A stretch of DNA of 24,000 nt from Rickettsiales bacterium (GTDB taxonomy: Bacteria; Pseudomonadota; Alphaproteobacteria; Rickettsiales; UBA3002): contig JAIXZB010000023.1 in NCBI GenBank assembly GCA_027489915.1, positions 7,854 through 31,853 on the forward strand. Reading direction: 5' to 3'. The notes below the pieces were generated by a model. That model was not told the DNA's origin. It searched no databases and saw only the letters and a program-made list of their open reading frames with translations. The translations under genes were made by a program, and so were the position numbers. The stretch's first letter is position 1; every line of letters begins with the position of its first letter. Positions 15,605 through 23,055 of the stretch are shown one piece after another.

Positions 15605-16053
15605 TACTCGCTCAATTCGCCAGCGAGCTGTTCAAAATCTTTGGCTTCGGTGAAATCTTTATACACCGATGCGAAGCGGATATAGGCCACGGCATCGAGT
15701 GCTTTGAGCTCTTCCATCACCAGCTGCCCGATGCGTGCGGAGGCGATTTCACTCTCGCCTTCACTCTCTAGGCGCTGCACAATGCGGTTGATAGAAAACT
15801 CCACCGCATCGGCTTCCACTGGCCGTTTGCGCAGGGCAATAGACATGGAGCGCGCGATTTTATCGCGGTCAAATAAGCGGCGCTCTCCGTTTGTTTTCAC
15901 CACGGTTAGTTCGCGCAGTTGCACCCGTTCAAACGTGGTGAAACGCGAATTACAATTAGGACAAAAACGGCGGCGGCGAATGGTGGATCCATCCTCGCTT
16001 GGCCGCGAATCTTTTACCTGCGTATCGTGGTGACTACAAAATGGGCAGCGCAT
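15604..16053 (-). CDS. nrdR: Transcriptional repressor NrdR
   Basis: [17 protein letters not shown]...[12 protein letters not shown] zinc ribbon plus an ATP-cone, 149 aa. The stop overlaps the ribD start (TAATG). Confidence 0.95.
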
Positions 16054-16520
16054 TATTCTACCTTAATTGATGTTTTTATGCCTTTTTCTTTAAAAGGAAC
16101 GATGTAATGCAAGACAAGGGCAGCACTTATGCCCGAGAAAATAACTAGGGGCGTGCCAGAGCCTAGAGCTAATACATGTTCAAATTTACAAGAACTGGTA
16201 AGATTAAAGTAACCCCTGCGAAAGCATTCGTATATTCCAACAAAAACAAAAAAAAGATATGTGATTACTCCAGAAAATAAGCTTAGCTTGAGTGTCATAT
16301 GCTGCTCGTTATGCTTATGAAGCTTTGCAGAAAAAGCTCCAGTTAGAAACGAAGGTATTGCCCCAATAAAATATGTCGCTACAATTACTAAAGGCCATAC
16401 ATTCGGCCTAAATAGTGCTGGTATAGACAATTTAAGCAAAATTGAGCTCAACAATATAAATACTACAGCACCAATAATTGGACCTAGTATAAAGAAGGTG
16501 AATGCTTGTCTCCAAACCAC
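16053..16520 (-). CDS. Hypothetical 4-TM membrane protein with no recognised family, encoded in an AT-rich insert
   Basis: 155-aa ORF with four clear hydrophobic helices. The GTG start lies 8 nt after the glyA stop, and the stop overlaps the nrdR start (TAATG). My hand count over 16081-16500 gives about 37% G+C, against roughly 47-57% in three adjacent 60-nt samples of nrdR and glyA. I recognise no family. Confidence 0.55.
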
Positions 16521-17893: not shown

Positions 17894-18349
17894 TTATCCT
17901 AATTTCTCGATGCGTTGCTGATGTCTGCCGCCTTCGTAAGCGGTGGTTAGAAATTGTTCGGTGCATGCGGCTGCTTCGGCGATGCCAATCAAGCGCGCAC
18001 CGAGGCACAGCACGTTCGCATCGTTGTGCTTGCGCGAAAGTGTGGCGGCAAGGGCGCTGTGACAGAGCGCCGCGCGGATGCCAGCGAAACGATTAGCGGC
18101 AATGGAAATGCCGATGCCCGAGCCGCAAATAGCGATGCCAAATTCGGCGCGCTTTGCGAGTACTTCCGTTGAAACTTTTGCAGCGTAGTCGGGATAGTCT
18201 ACCGAAGCTGTGCCATGCGTGCCAACATCGTGCGCGGCAAATCCGCAGGCTTCGATGGTGGGAATCAAGGCTGCTTTCAAATCCACTCCTGCATGGTCGC
18301 TGCCGATGGCAACGATGAGGGGTGATGTGTTATGTGCATTACTATTCAC
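17894..18349 (-). CDS. rpiB: Ribose-5-phosphate isomerase B
   Basis: IAIGSDHAG, CGSGIG and NDANVLCLGAR motifs. The track ORF (to 18457) starts at a TTG that overlaps the divergent gene and adds a Cys-rich 36-aa extension. I trim to the GTG at 18349, which gives about 151 aa, the normal RpiB size. No SD is visible, so the start is uncertain. Confidence 0.8.
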   Translation of the reverse strand: MNSNAHNTSPLIVAIGSDHAGVDLKAALIPTIEACGFAAHDVGTHGTASVDYPDYAAKVSTEVLAKRAEFGIAICGSGIGISIAANRFAGIRAALCHSALAATLSRKHNDANVLCLGARLIGIAEAAACTEQFLTTAYEGGRHQQRIEKLG

Positions 18350-18378
18350 AAACGGTGCTACAGAGTTGTTTGTATTAT

Positions 18379-18394
18379 CTACTATATATGGTAG
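18379..18394. promoter_or_regulatory. Imperfect 16-bp AT-core palindrome in the rpiB / prepilin-peptidase divergent region
   Basis: CTACTATATATGGTAG has 4-bp arms CTAC/GTAG around the core. It matches 11 of 16 positions of the NrdR-box consensus as I recall it (acaCwAtATaTwgtgt). It may equally be just a -10-like TATA stretch. Confidence 0.25.
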
Positions 18395-18448
18395 TAGGCG
18401 TATGGTTATACACGCGCATGTGGATAACGCAACCGCAATAAGGCCACC

Positions 18449-19276
18449 ATGCAACAACTCGCCCAGATTTCTGCCGATTTTCCTTTGGGGGTGGGGGTGT
18501 TTCTAGGCTTGCTCGGAGCAGCTTTAGGCAGTTTTATGACCATGGCGACTTATCGTTTGCCGCTGGATTTGCCCATAGGCCGCACCCGCTCGCGCTGCCC
18601 TGCATGCGGCACATCGCTTAAGGCGCGTGACCTTTTCCCTGTCCTAAGCTGGGTGCTTTCGCGCGGAAAATGCCGCTATTGCAGCACAAGGGTGCATGTG
18701 CGCTACCCGCTGATTGAACTAAGCTGCGCAGCAGCCTGTGTGGTGACGTATGTGCTTATGGGGCTTAGCCCTATCAGCCTGTGTATTATGGTGCTGCTGC
18801 TTGGTATTATTGCCATTTTCATCACCGATTTTGAGCACCGCATTATCCTCGATGAAGTGCAGATAGTGCTGTTTTTTATGGGTGTGCTTTACGGCATGGC
18901 GAATGCAGTGCCATTGCCGCATGTGTTTGCGATGGCGGCGGTGGGCATTGCGATTGGGCTTACGCTGAAATACGGATTTTTGTTTCTTATGAATAAAGAC
19001 GGGCTTGGGCTTGGCGATGTGAAGTTTCTAGCCGTAGTGGGCGCATGGCTTGCTTCTGGCGCGTTGGATTTTACGGCTTTTGTGCCGTTTTTGTTTTATT
19101 CAGGAATCCTTGGGATTGTGACATCGCTTGCATGGAAGCTGGTCTCGAAAGATGAGCATTTTCCCTTTGGCCCTGCGCTTGCATTGAGTTTATTGGTATG
19201 CGTATTGTGGCCAGAATCGGTGGCCGCATTTTTCACGCTGTATGGAATTTTGCCACTTCATGTGGGGACGGTTTAG
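18449..19276 (+). CDS. Type IV prepilin leader peptidase / N-methyltransferase family (A24; PilD/GspO-like)
   Basis: 275 aa, polytopic. The N-terminal loop carries CPAC...22 residues...CRYC (C50, C53, C75, C78), the PilD-type zinc-knuckle region. Aspartyl-protease motifs are ITDFEH and GLGLGDVKF. AAGG lies 5 nt upstream of the ATG. Confidence 0.85.
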   Translation: MQQLAQISADFPLGVGVFLGLLGAALGSFMTMATYRLPLDLPIGRTRSRCPACGTSLKARDLFPVLSWVLSRGKCRYCSTRVHVRYPLIELSCAAACVVTYVLMGLSPISLCIMVLLLGIIAIFITDFEHRIILDEVQIVLFFMGVLYGMANAVPLPHVFAMAAVGIAIGLTLKYGFLFLMNKDGLGLGDVKFLAVVGAWLASGALDFTAFVPFLFYSGILGIVTSLAWKLVSKDEHFPFGPALALSLLVCVLWPESVAAFFTLYGILPLHVGTV

Positions 19277-19385
19277 TTATCCACAAGATTTCGCATTTGC
19301 ACTTATAGTTACAGTTGCGTTTTTCTGTCGGCCATGTTCTTACATATGGTAGAAATTTTTCTTCATCCTACTACCGGTTGTGTTC

Positions 19386-21278
19386 ATGCGCCGATTTATG
19401 ACTGTATCTCCCCATTTATTGGTACTGGTTGCTTTGACAGGCGCGGTTTTCACGCTGTCGGGCTGTAATTTAGAAGATGAGGTGGCCGGTTGGCGCGATA
19501 AAGATGTAGTTGATCGCCCGCAAAAACTATCGCGCGATGATTATCGTAATATGAACCGCAAGGAAAAGCTGCTTTCCGAAGACGGTGAATCTGCAGCGGC
19601 GCTCGGCGTTCCTCCTATTCCTGATGTGGCGCAGGTGATTGCCGCGCCGCGCCCACCTAAAGTGGGCAATACCAAGCTAGTGTCTATCGCTGTTACGGAT
19701 GATGTGCCGTTGCGTGATGTGTTGTTCGAGCTTGGGCGATTGGCAGATGTAGATATTGAAATTGGCCCTGGGCTCTCAAATCGCGGTATTAACCTTCGCG
19801 CAAAAGATAAGCCGTTTAATCAAGTCATTGAGCGCATTTCAGATTTGGCTGGGTTACGCTATTCGGTGAAAAATGGTGCGTTGCGTGTGGAGCGCGATAC
19901 GCCGTATTTCAAAAACTACACGCTCGATTTTCTCAACATCGTGCGCTCTAGCACAAGCAATGTGAATGTGACGAGTAATGTGCTTTCCTCTTCAGTGGGT
20001 GGCGGTAGCAGCGGTGGTGGCAGCACGGGCAATAGCAGCACAAGCGGTGGCGGTGGCGGCGGTGGCGGTAGTTCTAGCGGAGTATCAACGGGAACCACCA
20101 GCAGCATCACTGCGGGGTCTGAAAGTGATATTTGGTCTTCACTTGAAGCCAGCATAACTGAAATTTTAAATACGTCGGCAAGTGCAGCAGATTTAGCAGG
20201 GGCGGCTACTGCAGGCATTGGATCAGCTGGTACAGAGGGTGCAGCGGGAGCGGCTGGTACAACAGCTGGAGGTGGTGGTGCGGGTGCTTCGGGTGGTGCA
20301 AGCGTAAACTTCGTGGTGAACCGTCAGGCGGGAGTGCTTTCGGCCAATGCGACTGAGCGTCAGCACGACAAGCTTGCGATGTATTTGAAATTGCTGGAAC
20401 GTAATTCTTCTGCGCAGGTGCTGATTGAAGCGAAGATTGTAGAAGTAACCTTAAACGATCAATTCCAATCAGGCATTAACTGGAGCAATCTGGTTGGTTC
20501 TATAGATAGCAGTAATATTAGTCTTGGTTCATTCCAGCCAAATGGTGGTATCAACGATTTCTCACTAGGCTCAAACGGTGCGATTACCTTCACGCTTGAA
20601 AACGGGAATCTTGATGCCGTGTTGCAGATGACCCAGCGTTTTGGTACCACGCGCACACTTTCAAGCCCACGCCTACATGCGATTAATAACCAACAGGCTG
20701 TTTTAACGTTTGCACAAAACCGCGTGATACAAACCTGCAGCATCACTGAAGGTGACAGCGCAACGGCAACCGATACCGGCACTGTAACGCAGGGGCCTTC
20801 CTATGAGTGTGAAGTTTCGACGATTCCTATTGGTATTATTCTCAATATCATGCCGTCTATCAATCTGGATTCGCAGGAAGTAACGCTCAATGTACGCCCT
20901 ACATTGTCACGTCAGATTGATCAGGTAGAAAACGCCTCAACACGCCTCGCTGCGCGCGCTCTTCAGGATGATGAGCTGCAAAGCTTTATCCCAATTATTG
21001 AGGTGCGTGAGATTGATTCTGTCATGAAAATCAAATCTGGTGCGGTGATGATTATCGGCGGTCTGATGGAAGATGGCGCAAGTAATGAAGAGCGTGGCGT
21101 ACCTGGCGTGAGTGAAATTCCGTGGTTGGGTAATGCATTCAAGAGCCGTAGTGAGTTGTCTCAAAAACGTGAATTGATTATTTTTATCAAAGCTACTGTA
21201 GTTAATTCTTCGGGATCTGCTGACCCAATAGACCGCAGTATCATGAAGAAATACACGACTGACGCACGTCCGATTTAG
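19386..21278 (+). CDS. Lipoprotein secretin, MshL-like (T2SS/T4P secretin family)
   Basis: Signal peptide plus lipobox (..GAVFTLSGC|N, Cys codon 19464-19466). It has an N-terminal secretin_N-type domain (VSIAVTDDVPLRDVLFELGRLADVDI...ALRVE) and an MshL-like YTLDFLN..R / DIWSSLE..ITEIL region. The canonical secretin C-domain is present (QVLIEAKIVEVTLND..GINW; LSSPRLHAINNQQA; GVPGVSEIPWLGNAFKS...ELIIFIKATVV). The track start is the GTG at 19380; I prefer the ATG at 19386. Confidence 0.85.
   Translation: MRRFMTVSPHLLVLVALTGAVFTLSGCNLEDEVAGWRDKDVVDRPQKLSRDDYRNMNRKEKLLSEDGESAAALGVPPIPDVAQVIAAPRPPKVGNTKLVSIAVTDDVPLRDVLFELGRLADVDIEIGPGLSNRGINLRAKDKPFNQVIERISDLAGLRYSVKNGALRVERDTPYFKNYTLDFLNIVRSSTSNVNVTSNVLSSSVGGGSSGGGSTGNSSTSGGGGGGGGSSSGVSTGTTSSITAGSESDIWSSLEASITEILNTSASAADLAGAATAGIGSAGTEGAAGAAGTTAGGGGAGASGGASVNFVVNRQAGVLSANATERQHDKLAMYLKLLERNSSAQVLIEAKIVEVTLNDQFQSGINWSNLVGSIDSSNISLGSFQPNGGINDFSLGSNGAITFTLENGNLDAVLQMTQRFGTTRTLSSPRLHAINNQQAVLTFAQNRVIQTCSITEGDSATATDTGTVTQGPSYECEVSTIPIGIILNIMPSINLDSQEVTLNVRPTLSRQIDQVENASTRLAARALQDDELQSFIPIIEVREIDSVMKIKSGAVMIIGGLMEDGASNEERGVPGVSEIPWLGNAFKSRSELSQKRELIIFIKATVVNSSGSADPIDRSIMKKYTTDARPI
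19986..20303 (+). repeat. Bipartite Gly/Ser/Thr/Ala low-complexity insert inside the secretin gene
   Basis: Block 1 (19986-20117) encodes SSSVGGGSSGGGSTGNSSTSGGGGGGGGSSSGVSTGTTSSITAGS and includes an imperfect GGY triplet run at 20046-20069 (G8). Block 2 (20172-20303) encodes TSASAADLAGAATAGIGSAGTEGAAGAAGTTAGGGGAGASGGAS. A conserved-looking island (ESDIWSSLEASITEIL) separates the two blocks. Confidence 0.8.
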
Positions 21279-21280
21279 CT

Positions 21281-22045
21281 ATGTTCACTAATATCCGCTA
21301 TGTATTGCTAACCGCCATTCGTGACCGGCTTTTTGCAGGTCTGATTGTGGGTATATTGTTTGCGACCTATATCTCAAGCGCGATGGGCTCGACCGCGATG
21401 CTTGAGCCGCAACAGATGACGATTGCGTTTGCTGCCGCTATCTCGCGCATTATTGTGATGGTGGGAATTATCGTATTTATTGCGTTTCATATTCGTGGCG
21501 CGTTTGAAAGCCGCGAAATTGACTTACTGCTCTCGCGCCCTATTAGCCGCGCCACACTCGTGATGTCGTACTGGTTTGGTTTTGTGGTGGTAGCTACCTT
21601 GCTGTGCATACCCGCGATGGCGGTGCTTGCAGTGCTTGGTATTTTGGATGCAAAAGGGTATGCGCTGTGGTGCCTGAGCCTGGTGCTGGAATCTTGGCTT
21701 GTAGTATCGCTTGCATTATTTGCTGCGGTAACGCTGAGGAGCGGCGTGGTAACGGTGCTTGCTGGGCTTGGGTTTTACACCTTGTCGCGCATGATTGGTT
21801 TTTTCGTCGCCACCACCAAATCGGGCATGCTGTTTGAAAGCACGCTGCTCAATGAAGCCCTGCGATTTGTGATGAAAGCTATTTCTTCTGTCATACCGCG
21901 GATGGATTTTTTTGGTAAAGGAAGTTGGCTGGTATATGGACCCGAAACCATGCAGGCCTTGTGGTTGTTTGTAGCGCAAGGGGCGATATTTATTCCGCTA
22001 CTGCTTGCTGCGACCATCATTGATTTTTCACGGAAGCAGTTTTAG
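21281..22045 (+). CDS. Six-TM membrane protein, GldF/NosY-like ABC-2 permease fold; no partner ATPase in the window
   Basis: 254 aa. The layout is TM1, TM2, then GAFESREIDLLLSRPISR (21497-21550), then four more TM helices. Position and sequence resemble the E.E.GTLELLL..P(V/I)SR signature that follows TM2 in GldF/NosY-type ABC-2 permeases. It starts 2 nt after the secretin stop (TAGCTATG). Confidence 0.6.
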   Translation: MFTNIRYVLLTAIRDRLFAGLIVGILFATYISSAMGSTAMLEPQQMTIAFAAAISRIIVMVGIIVFIAFHIRGAFESREIDLLLSRPISRATLVMSYWFGFVVVATLLCIPAMAVLAVLGILDAKGYALWCLSLVLESWLVVSLALFAAVTLRSGVVTVLAGLGFYTLSRMIGFFVATTKSGMLFESTLLNEALRFVMKAISSVIPRMDFFGKGSWLVYGPETMQALWLFVAQGAIFIPLLLAATIIDFSRKQF

Positions 22046-22047
22046 CG

Positions 22048-22803
22048 ATGCGTGCAGCCATTGCAGTATTGATGCTTGCTCTTGCTGCGCAAGGCGGGTT
22101 CTGGTGGAAAACACGCAGTATTATTCCCGAAATGACGATTGTGCCTGATGTGCCAGGAGAAGCCACGGTGAAAGCATTGTCGCTCGGTGATGAGCAGGTA
22201 TTTTTCAGATTTCTCGCACTGAATGTGCAAAATGCAGGTGATACTTTTGGTCGATTTACTGCCCTGTATAAATACGATTTCAATAGGCTGTATCACTGGT
22301 TCAATCTGCTTGATACGCTCGATAACCAGTCGAACTATGTGCCCAGCATGGCGACGTATTATTTTAGCCAGACCCAGCATAAACCTGATGTAAAATACAT
22401 CGTGGATTATCTGGAAAACCATGCGAAGGGCCGTGTGAAGGACAAATGGTGGTGGGTGGTGCAGGCCGTGTATTTGAGCAATCACAAGCTGGAAGATAAA
22501 GACCGCGCACTGGAACTTGCGAATATGTTGAAAGATGTAAAAGATATACCGCTATGGGCGCAGCAGATGCCTGCCTTCATTCACGAACAACGTGGTGAGA
22601 TGGAAGAGGCGAGTGCCATCATTGAGAATATTTTGAAAAGTGAACAACAACTTAAACAGGGCGAGCTGAACTTCATGTATTTCTTTTTGAAAGACCGCAC
22701 CAAACGCCTAGATGAATTAAAAGGCGATTTGAAAGCAGCGCAGAAGCGCCACACACCAGGCGCAGATGAGCCGAAGCCTGTGGAGGGGTTGTTAGCTAAG
22801 TAA
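22048..22803 (+). CDS. Hypothetical N-terminally anchored (or secreted) helical protein, unknown family
   Basis: 251 aa with hydrophobic N-terminus MRAAIAVLMLALAAQGGFWW. A Trp/Tyr-rich body follows (KWWWVVQAVYLSNHKLEDKDRALELANML has a TPR-like flavour), then a charged C-terminal tail. It starts 2 nt after the previous stop (TAGCGATG). Confidence 0.55.
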   Translation: MRAAIAVLMLALAAQGGFWWKTRSIIPEMTIVPDVPGEATVKALSLGDEQVFFRFLALNVQNAGDTFGRFTALYKYDFNRLYHWFNLLDTLDNQSNYVPSMATYYFSQTQHKPDVKYIVDYLENHAKGRVKDKWWWVVQAVYLSNHKLEDKDRALELANMLKDVKDIPLWAQQMPAFIHEQRGEMEEASAIIENILKSEQQLKQGELNFMYFFLKDRTKRLDELKGDLKAAQKRHTPGADEPKPVEGLLAK

Positions 22804-23055
22804 CGAAACGTCGCGTTGTTCGTATTCTTTAATGGTTTCTTCAATACAGTGTGCAAAGTGCGCTACCGCTTCTTCCTCTGATGCAAAATAGCGGGGATTA
22901 GTTTTTGATCCGCGATCGCTGAAATAGACGCACCAGCCAGAGGAGGTCTGTTCAATACCGAATACATCACCACCGCCAAGTGTGCCACTCAGTGCATATA
23001 AATACTCAGGCACATGTTCAGCGTGAAGGCGTGCGAGCAAGGCTTCGAGTGTCAT
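22792..23055 (-). CDS. Small conserved-looking hypothetical protein (87 aa), function unknown
   Basis: It starts 2 nt after the panB stop (TAGCAATG) and overlaps the convergent gene by 12 nt. I have seen the pattern ...VPEYLYAL.G.....DVFGIE....GW.VYFSDRGSK.....F.SEEEAV..F in many uncharacterised small proteins, but I cannot name a family. Confidence 0.5.
   Translation of the reverse strand: MTLEALLARLHAEHVPEYLYALSGTLGGGDVFGIEQTSSGWCVYFSDRGSKTNPRYFASEEEAVAHFAHCIEETIKEYEQRDVSLLS

Follow-up and report, generated by a model that had tools for sequence, protein, structure and literature searches.

An operon that pairs a prepilin peptidase with a secretin, followed by two membrane protein genes without an evident family, raises the question of whether it forms a system of its own or belongs to a larger pilus or secretion machine. 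Such an operon occurs in a stretch of 24,000 nucleotides (nt) of contig JAIXZB010000023.1 from a Rickettsiales bacterium, referred to here as the window, in which four co-directional genes lie at positions 18449-22803 between rpiB and panB, as had been predicted from the sequence:

18449..19276, + strand: open reading frame (ORF) 1, a pilD-type bifunctional prepilin peptidase/N-methyltransferase of 275 amino acids (aa), assigned by Pfam A24_N_bact and Peptidase_A24
19380..21278, + strand: ORF 2, an MshL-like secretin with a predicted lipoprotein signal peptide, 632 aa from GTG 19380, assigned by Pfam and NCBIfam
21281..22045, + strand: P3, an inner-membrane protein of 254 aa resembling an ATP-binding cassette (ABC) permease of the ABC-2 (type V) class, assigned from AlphaFold and Foldseek
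22048..22803, + strand: P4, an N-anchored, probably periplasmic, helical-repeat protein of 251 aa, similar to tetratricopeptide repeat (TPR) proteins, assigned from AlphaFold

The original prediction had offered two explanations, in which either the type IV pilus (T4P) genes of the organism are scattered and P3 and P4 are unrelated hitch-hikers, or the secretin works with an ABC-2-like protein and an anchored adaptor in an undescribed kind of system. Comparison with relatives showed that secretin, P3 and P4 are a conserved pilus sub-module. The four genes together are probably the detached 3' portion of a conserved T4P cluster, of a mannose-sensitive haemagglutinin (MSHA)-like or type IVa-like kind, that has its own ABC transporter.

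The complete pilus locus and its window-type counterpart

An exhaustive search with a P3 profile returned 880 related clusters (50% identity). In the neighbourhoods of the distant P3 homologues and of ABC ATPase homologues, an order of ~15 genes was found to be fixed in ~30 loci: pilB, pilC, a ~545-aa gene, a ~220-aa gene, a ~190-290-aa gene, an ABC ATPase gene, a TPR gene, pilD, pilT, pilU, the secretin gene, P3, P4, a membrane AraC gene and a pilin gene (N_methyl). A metagenome scan with the ~545-aa protein, based on a five-sequence alignment, yielded 26 independent loci, none of which departed from this order or showed a split arrangement, and those with long flanks kept it through the secretin, P3 and P4. 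The GC content of the complete loci ranged from 35% to 63%. All four genes of the window have counterparts in them, with identities of 32-38% for the peptidase (to pilD), 30-34% for the secretin, 31-39% for P3 and 30-38% for P4, whose homologue directly followed P3 in all complete loci. Relative to this arrangement, the window lacks pilT and pilU between pilD and the secretin, as well as the whole upstream half.

The components of the complete locus are those of a pilus machine, with the assembly ATPase, the platform protein and the pilin all present. PilB contained MshEN plus T2SSE, its MshE-type cyclic di-GMP-binding motif scored 70 bits against a cut-off of 38, and the protein matched the PilB and GspE models almost equally. 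Both PilT and PilU passed the PilT/PilU family cut-off (474 and 441 bits vs 319). The secretin again scored best as MshL (220 bits), the platform protein scored best with GspF at 330 bits, which is below the cut-off, and the pilin gave weak scores with GspG and GspH. The ABC ATPase gene (ABC_tran) occurred in every complete locus, five genes upstream of the secretin, and its product resembled ATPases of ABC-2-type transporters, among them DrrA and GldA. The complete locus therefore includes a cognate ATPase for P3. An ATPase, an ABC-2 permease and an extracytoplasmic protein thus stand together in the T4P cluster of the complete loci, of which the window holds only P3 and P4. The original prediction had named a permease belonging to an ABC transporter with its ATPase encoded elsewhere as the finding that would speak against it, and this is what the complete loci contain.

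Three envelope genes of the complete locus resisted assignment. Those encoding the ~545-, ~220- and ~190-290-aa proteins (L060:7196-9989, L067:6835-9986 and equivalents) occupy the position expected for PilM/N/O/P or MshI/J/K, and their products had no Pfam, NCBIfam or PDB sequence match. A PDB sequence-profile search with the ~545-aa protein returned only spurious or weak TPR matches, which were rejected, and neither this protein nor P3 had a tblastn match among the plasmids of PLSDB. The gene after P4 encodes a ~360-aa AraC-type regulator (HTH_18) whose N-terminal half is long and hydrophobic (L003:11608-12699, L056:11523-12593 and equivalents). It was present in every complete locus that reached far enough except L064, where pilin genes directly follow P4.

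To define the lineage of the window, P3 was searched in one genome per GTDB species. As a result, 47 loci were identified, all from uncultured alphaproteobacterial metagenome-assembled genomes deposited as 'Rickettsiales bacterium', 'Azospirillum sp.' or 'Alphaproteobacteria bacterium'. The order peptidase-secretin-P3-P4 was kept wherever flanks were present (tblastn), with L053 and L057 as the exceptions, and it persisted in loci lacking some or all of the rpiB, glyA and panB flanks (L032, L036, L039, L047, L048, L050 and L052). Within this lineage P3 and P4 are 60-90% identical. The membrane AraC gene followed P4 in 11 window-type loci and is absent from the window. Prepilin-type (N_methyl) ORFs homologous to the complete-locus pilin lay no more than 10 kb from the module in five loci (L007, L009, L027, L042 and L049). 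In L049 the peptidase, secretin and P3 genes are each broken over several reading frames (L049:7000-11700) and the adjoining pilin gene is intact, so that the breaks could stem from errors in long-read assembly or from genuine pseudogenisation of the module. In a midpoint-rooted P3 tree most window-type sequences were separated from the complete-locus sequences, with L047, L048, L050 and L052 on the complete-locus side; built without an outgroup, the tree cannot tell which arrangement is ancestral.

The gene-neighbourhood analysis that had been proposed for the co-occurrence of secretin, P3 and P4 thus found their adjacency kept in window-type and complete loci alike. Since P3 and P4 regularly stand next to the secretin in complete pilus loci, they are regular components of such loci and not hitch-hikers.

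The four proteins and their surroundings

The peptidase matched A24_N_bact (PF06750; E = 3.5e-26, 91.5 bits, cut-off 23) and Peptidase_A24 (PF01478; E = 2e-12, 47.9 bits, cut-off 26.5). At least 95% of 43 homologues retained C50, C53, C75, C78, D127 and D190. D190 lies within the GxGDxK motif (G187-x-G-D190-x-K192), and both D127 and D190 align to Asp in E. coli GspO. The predicted PilD/GspO-type A24 enzyme, with its CxxC...CxxC region and both Asp residues, is thereby confirmed.

The secretin matched Pfam Secretin (PF00263; E = 1.7e-31, 109.5 bits, cut-off 27.5) and Secretin_N_2 (E = 3.9e-6). MshL (TIGR02519) was the best of nine NCBIfam secretin models, at 214 bits vs 125 bits for GspD. The predicted resemblance to MshL-type secretins holds to that extent, the score remaining under the equivalog cut-off of 250.2 bits. 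Translation may start at GTG 19380, ATG 19386 or ATG 19398, all equally possible, and the signal peptide ends in LSGC (residues 26-29; Cys codon 19464-19466), as the original prediction of a self-lipidated secretin had it. A Cys closed the N-terminal hydrophobic stretch in all full-length secretins examined, that is, 47 of 47 window-type and 6 of 6 complete-locus sequences. Because this residue is universal among them, the lipoprotein nature of the secretin, with acylation predicted from the sequence, is a family trait. A loosened form of the classical lipobox pattern was used, which fitted 34 of the 47 window-type secretins; the Cys of the other 13 and of L064 was read by eye. The secretin also contains a low-complexity linker rich in Gly, Ser, Ala and Thr at roughly aa 195-305 (window ~19960-20300), which creates spurious antisense ORFs such as 19916-20218 (-) with its poly-Pro run.

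P3 of the window had no significant Pfam or NCBIfam match, ABC2_membrane_2 (PF12679) reaching E = 0.18 and 11.4 bits against a cut-off of 27.2, and the L067 homologue matched Pfam ABC2_membrane weakly (E = 0.004). An AlphaFold model computed with 16 homologues (predicted local distance difference test score, pLDDT, 66) comprised six long helices and an N-terminal helix. When it was searched against the PDB with Foldseek, NosY of NosDFY came first (E = 2e-4, TM-score 0.63-0.65), followed by ABCG2, ABCG25, PmtCD and CcmB, all of which are type V (ABC-2) permeases. The model thus supports a six-helix ABC-2 fold, in agreement with the six-helix permease that had been predicted. Application of the positive-inside rule would place the conserved ESREIDLLLSRPISR motif in the cytoplasmic loop between transmembrane helices 2 and 3 (TM2-TM3). 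Between the window-type and complete-locus clades, the N-terminal helix, the TM2-TM3 loop and the C-tail were the best conserved, at 44%, 57% and 50%, respectively, vs 20-37% for the membrane helices. These three elements are where permease and ATPase meet in type V ABC transporters. The stronger conservation of these cytoplasmic parts would be expected if the contact with an ATPase has been retained.

A further motif, PRxDxxxxxxWLxYG (P3 residues 206-220; 21896-21940), is conserved in both clades. It falls in a poorly modelled, probably periplasmic loop and is a candidate for the site at which P3 contacts P4 or the secretin. A cation/proton exchanger returned by a PDB profile search with P3 (E = 8e-4) was rejected as a match of hydrophobic helices with a different fold.

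P4 had no Pfam hit even at E = 10 and no NCBIfam match. Its AlphaFold model (pLDDT 77) consisted of a membrane helix at residues 2-23 followed by 11 helices. PDB profile matches were weak and fell on the TPR regions of LapB and SRP72 (E = 0.08-0.3), Foldseek returned MamA and a consensus TPR protein (E > 0.09), and some P4 homologues carry the label TPR at JGI. The protein is accordingly still what it had been described as, an N-terminally anchored helical protein without an assignable family, now modelled with helical repeats.

Both close junctions noted originally are present in the window, TAGCTATG between the secretin and P3 and TAGCGATG between P3 and P4, each start codon lying 2 nt past the preceding stop. 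The spacing of the first is particular to the window, the secretin-P3 gap being 2 to 121 nt among the called genes of relatives. The P3-P4 gap stayed tight, between -4 and +20 nt, wherever the genes were called, and P4 is translationally coupled to P3. A promoter and terminator scan gave no more sites than in shuffled sequence, and the operon structure is therefore read from gene spacing.

The remaining long ORFs of the window are housekeeping genes. Pfam, with which most of them were scanned, identified lptF, lptG, lptD, surA, ksgA, gmk, PCuAC, SCO1, bamE and thiL, and the nusB-rib-nrdR-glyA-rpiB block and panB were assigned through synteny and tblastn to annotated relatives. No T4P assembly ATPase, platform protein or pilin was found in the 24 kb by Pfam and tblastn, nor any gene for a prepilin-type substrate, and with E. 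coli GspC-O, HofB, HofC and PpdD as tblastn queries the secretin and the peptidase were the sole matches. The absences listed in the original prediction are thus borne out.

Three ORFs near the operon deserve mention. The longest rpiB ORF, 17894-18457 (-), with a TTG start and 187 aa, overlaps the pilD start codon at 18449 (+). Because rpiB is called at 128-147 aa in relatives, its true start in the window is probably further downstream, giving a divergent intergenic region of ~170 nt. An 87-aa ORF at 22792-23055 (-) converges on P4 and overlaps its final 12 nt. Gene calling in the near-identical contig L006 includes this ORF, for which neither a Pfam match nor a homologue in any other locus was obtained. 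Between nrdR and glyA, a 155-aa ORF at 16053-16520 (-) encodes a multi-helix membrane protein whose sole match was a sub-threshold one to Vps55 and which had no tblastn homologue in related loci. In L001, which is annotated across this region, nrdR directly adjoins glyA.

A probable detached pilus module and its alternatives

We infer that the window lineage keeps pilB, pilC, pilT, pilU and the ABC ATPase gene elsewhere in the genome, because the peptidase is intact, prepilin genes occur near the module in five relatives, P3 and P4 retain 60-90% identity and the cytoplasmic parts of P3 are conserved. Such a dispersal fits the scattered T4P genes of the original prediction, in that the same genes stand inside complete T4P loci and prepilin genes lie near some of the window-type modules. 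Several observations weigh against a detached module of this kind. In the window and in 52 other window-type loci, which include the 47 GTDB species representatives, searches within 10 kb of the module detected neither pilB, pilC, pilT and pilU nor the ABC ATPase gene and the three unassigned genes. No long window-type contig, of up to 735 kb, coincided in length with the contig of any of the 120 best ABC ATPase matches, an absence expected by chance at an estimated ~16% and therefore weak evidence. The module is not indivisible, as L053 has P3 without a secretin and L057, in which peptidase, secretin and P3 adjoin mreBCD, has no P4. The P3 model is also only moderately confident. An apparent 6,860-bp contig shared by the ABC ATPase and window-type P3/P4 proved to be a different contig, L062, which carries only the upstream part of a complete-type locus, from pilC to the start of pilD.

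If the four genes are such a detached portion, the cluster would have been broken in the window lineage, with pilD, secretin, P3 and P4 remaining between rpiB and panB and some relatives additionally keeping the AraC gene and a nearby pilin. PilD would cleave and N-methylate prepilins, and the pilus would cross the outer membrane through a channel made by the self-lipidated secretin. An ABC-2 transporter would have P3, probably dimeric, as its membrane half and would obtain its ATPase from a gene located away from the operon, and P4, made in a fixed ratio with P3, would be the membrane-anchored periplasmic partner of P3. By analogy with PilG, PilH and PilI of Myxococcus xanthus, the transporter may be needed for pilus assembly or pilin export, possibly linking ATP hydrolysis in the cytoplasm with a periplasmic step at the secretin. 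P3, P4 and the secretin would presumably be in physical contact. The original idea of a secretin working with an ABC-2 protein and an anchored adaptor is upheld as a conserved association and not as a free-standing secretion system.

A more specific, rather doubtful proposal is that the ATPase, P3 and P4 form a secretin-dedicated machine, in which P4, driven by ATP, assembles, gates or plugs the lipidated secretin, with force transmitted across the inner membrane as in NosDFY or LolCDE. It would account for the genetic attachment of P3 and P4 to the secretin gene instead of the ATPase gene. Taken further, the proposal would have the module work without any pilus motor in the window lineage. 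In another reading, pilB, pilC, pilT, pilU and the ABC ATPase have been lost, leaving peptidase, liposecretin, P3 and P4 as an autonomous, motor-less outer-membrane conduit for uptake or release, alone or with unrelated partners. Such a remnant would account for the missing motor, platform and ABC ATPase within 10 kb of every window-type module and for the long contigs that equal no ABC ATPase contig in length, and the 60-90% identity of P3 and P4 would then denote a reduced module under selection. However, the peptidase keeps all catalytic and zinc-site residues, implying prepilin substrates, and prepilin genes do lie near the module in five relatives, where pilins would have no known use lacking an assembly ATPase and platform. 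The best-conserved parts of P3 between the clades are, moreover, the cytoplasmic elements expected to contact an ATPase, and pil genes are commonly dispersed, as reported for Micavibrio (PMC3189940), cited here as an example of dispersal; a Micavibrio-like lineage was considered for the window, but no evidence places it in that order. We therefore regard a self-sufficient remnant as quite unlikely.

It is likewise unlikely, if a little less so, that the module serves pseudopilus-driven protein secretion of the type II kind in place of a surface pilus. The affinities of the complete-locus platform protein to GspF and, weakly, of the pilin to GspG and GspH would suit this use, as would the near tie of PilB between the PilB and GspE models, and the Micavibrio genome paper treats pil and gsp genes as interchangeable (PMC3189940). 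On the other side, two retraction-type ATPases of the PilT/PilU family, both above cut-off, are encoded directly upstream of the complete-locus secretin; pilT and pilU usually accompany retractile type IVa pili, not type II secretion, and their presence points to a retractile pilus. The secretin fits MshL far better than GspD, and GspC, GspL and GspM were not detected with E. coli queries in tblastn. Far less probable than either is that P3 and P4, as a pair of unrelated membrane genes, have no more in common with the secretin than an operon in this lineage, a reading that synteny has already largely refuted. L053 and L057 can be cited for it, but the adjacency holds in all other sufficiently flanked loci (~47 species and ~20 complete loci), down to 30% identity, across a GC range of 35-63% and with differing flanking genes, and the hitch-hikers of the original prediction fall with it.

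In L053, the chromosome OZ253531.1 of an AT-rich Rickettsiales genome, a solitary P3 homologue (L053:9929-10765; 32% identity, NKEIDLLLSRPISR motif intact) sits between an alpha/beta-hydrolase gene and pepA, near fliR, with no secretin, P4 or peptidase. Since it stands alone, P3 may have a role independent of the secretin.

Comparison with known pilus and transporter systems

ABC transporters within T4P clusters have been known since PilGHI of Myxococcus, described in 1998, and for this reason the operon of the window does not represent an undescribed kind of system; it is best understood as a fragment of a conserved pilus locus. New here are the invariant secretin-P3-P4 linkage, two or more protein families without a database model and the split arrangement of the window lineage. 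A three-part transporter comparable to PilGHI belongs to a rigidly conserved pilus locus of ~15 genes, which is widespread in uncultured bacteria of marine, freshwater, soil and wastewater metagenomes. P3 and P4 are two family definitions missing from Pfam and NCBIfam, in addition to the three further unassigned genes of the locus. The window lineage provides a natural split case, with the sub-module isolated from the remaining locus, and the link between secretin and transporter becomes a testable hypothesis. For annotation, orphan peptidase-secretin operons of this kind are to be regarded as pilus-system fragments and not as new secretion systems.

Several characterised systems share single features with the locus. 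Self-piloting liposecretins such as HxcQ and BfpB, the latter described as a lipoprotein secretin (PMC12531336), resemble the window secretin in carrying a lipoprotein signal peptide themselves, and there is no gene for a separate pilotin here; the window secretin differs in being MshL-like and not of the Hxc or Bfp type, with its lipidation predicted from the sequence. The MSHA pilus, with MshL, MshE and the TPR protein MshN, resembles the complete locus in its secretin, which scores best as MshL (214-220 bits), in the MshE-type cyclic di-GMP motif of PilB and in the presence of a TPR protein. It differs in that the secretin stays below the MshL cut-off, that MshI, MshJ, MshK and MshM were not recognisable in the complete locus with Pfam and NCBIfam, and that the locus has pilT, pilU and an ABC transporter. 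NosDFY(L) provides the best structural match of P3 in NosY, which is likewise a six-helix ABC-2 permease of small size and acts with a separate ATPase and a partner protein in the periplasm. However, P3 and NosY are only 14-18% identical, and the role of NosDFY in copper-site maturation of N2O reductase is unrelated. NosD, the periplasmic partner, is a beta-helix protein, whereas P4 is modelled as a helical repeat.

The closest known analogue, compared by component type, would be Myxococcus PilGHI (TCDB 3.A.1.144.5), which the transporter may work like, whether or not it is a member of that family. In both cases an ABC ATPase, an ABC-2-class permease and an extracytoplasmic protein are encoded within a T4P cluster, the complete loci having the same three kinds of component in the ABC ATPase, P3 and P4. 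PilGHI is encoded next to pilD in the Myxococcus cluster. There, pilG, pilH and pilI adjoin one another, with pilQ at a different place in the cluster; in the complete loci, by contrast, the P3 and P4 genes are attached to the secretin and the ATPase gene lies five genes upstream of it, and the window has no ATPase gene at all. In M. xanthus, PilG is the extracytoplasmic protein, PilH the ATPase and PilI the ABC-2-class membrane protein, all encoded in the pil cluster (PMC3924187; PMC3724824, citing Wu et al. 1998). These receptor, ATPase and membrane components (MXAN_5782-5780) are necessary for pilus assembly and PilA export, and their role is given solely as this requirement, with no mechanism (PMC3924187, PMC3724824); a review states that experimental data on transport by PilGHI are lacking (PMC6060248). 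If the ATPase, P3 and P4 did form a machine dedicated to the secretin, it would supply a mechanism for this long-unexplained requirement for PilGHI in Myxococcus.

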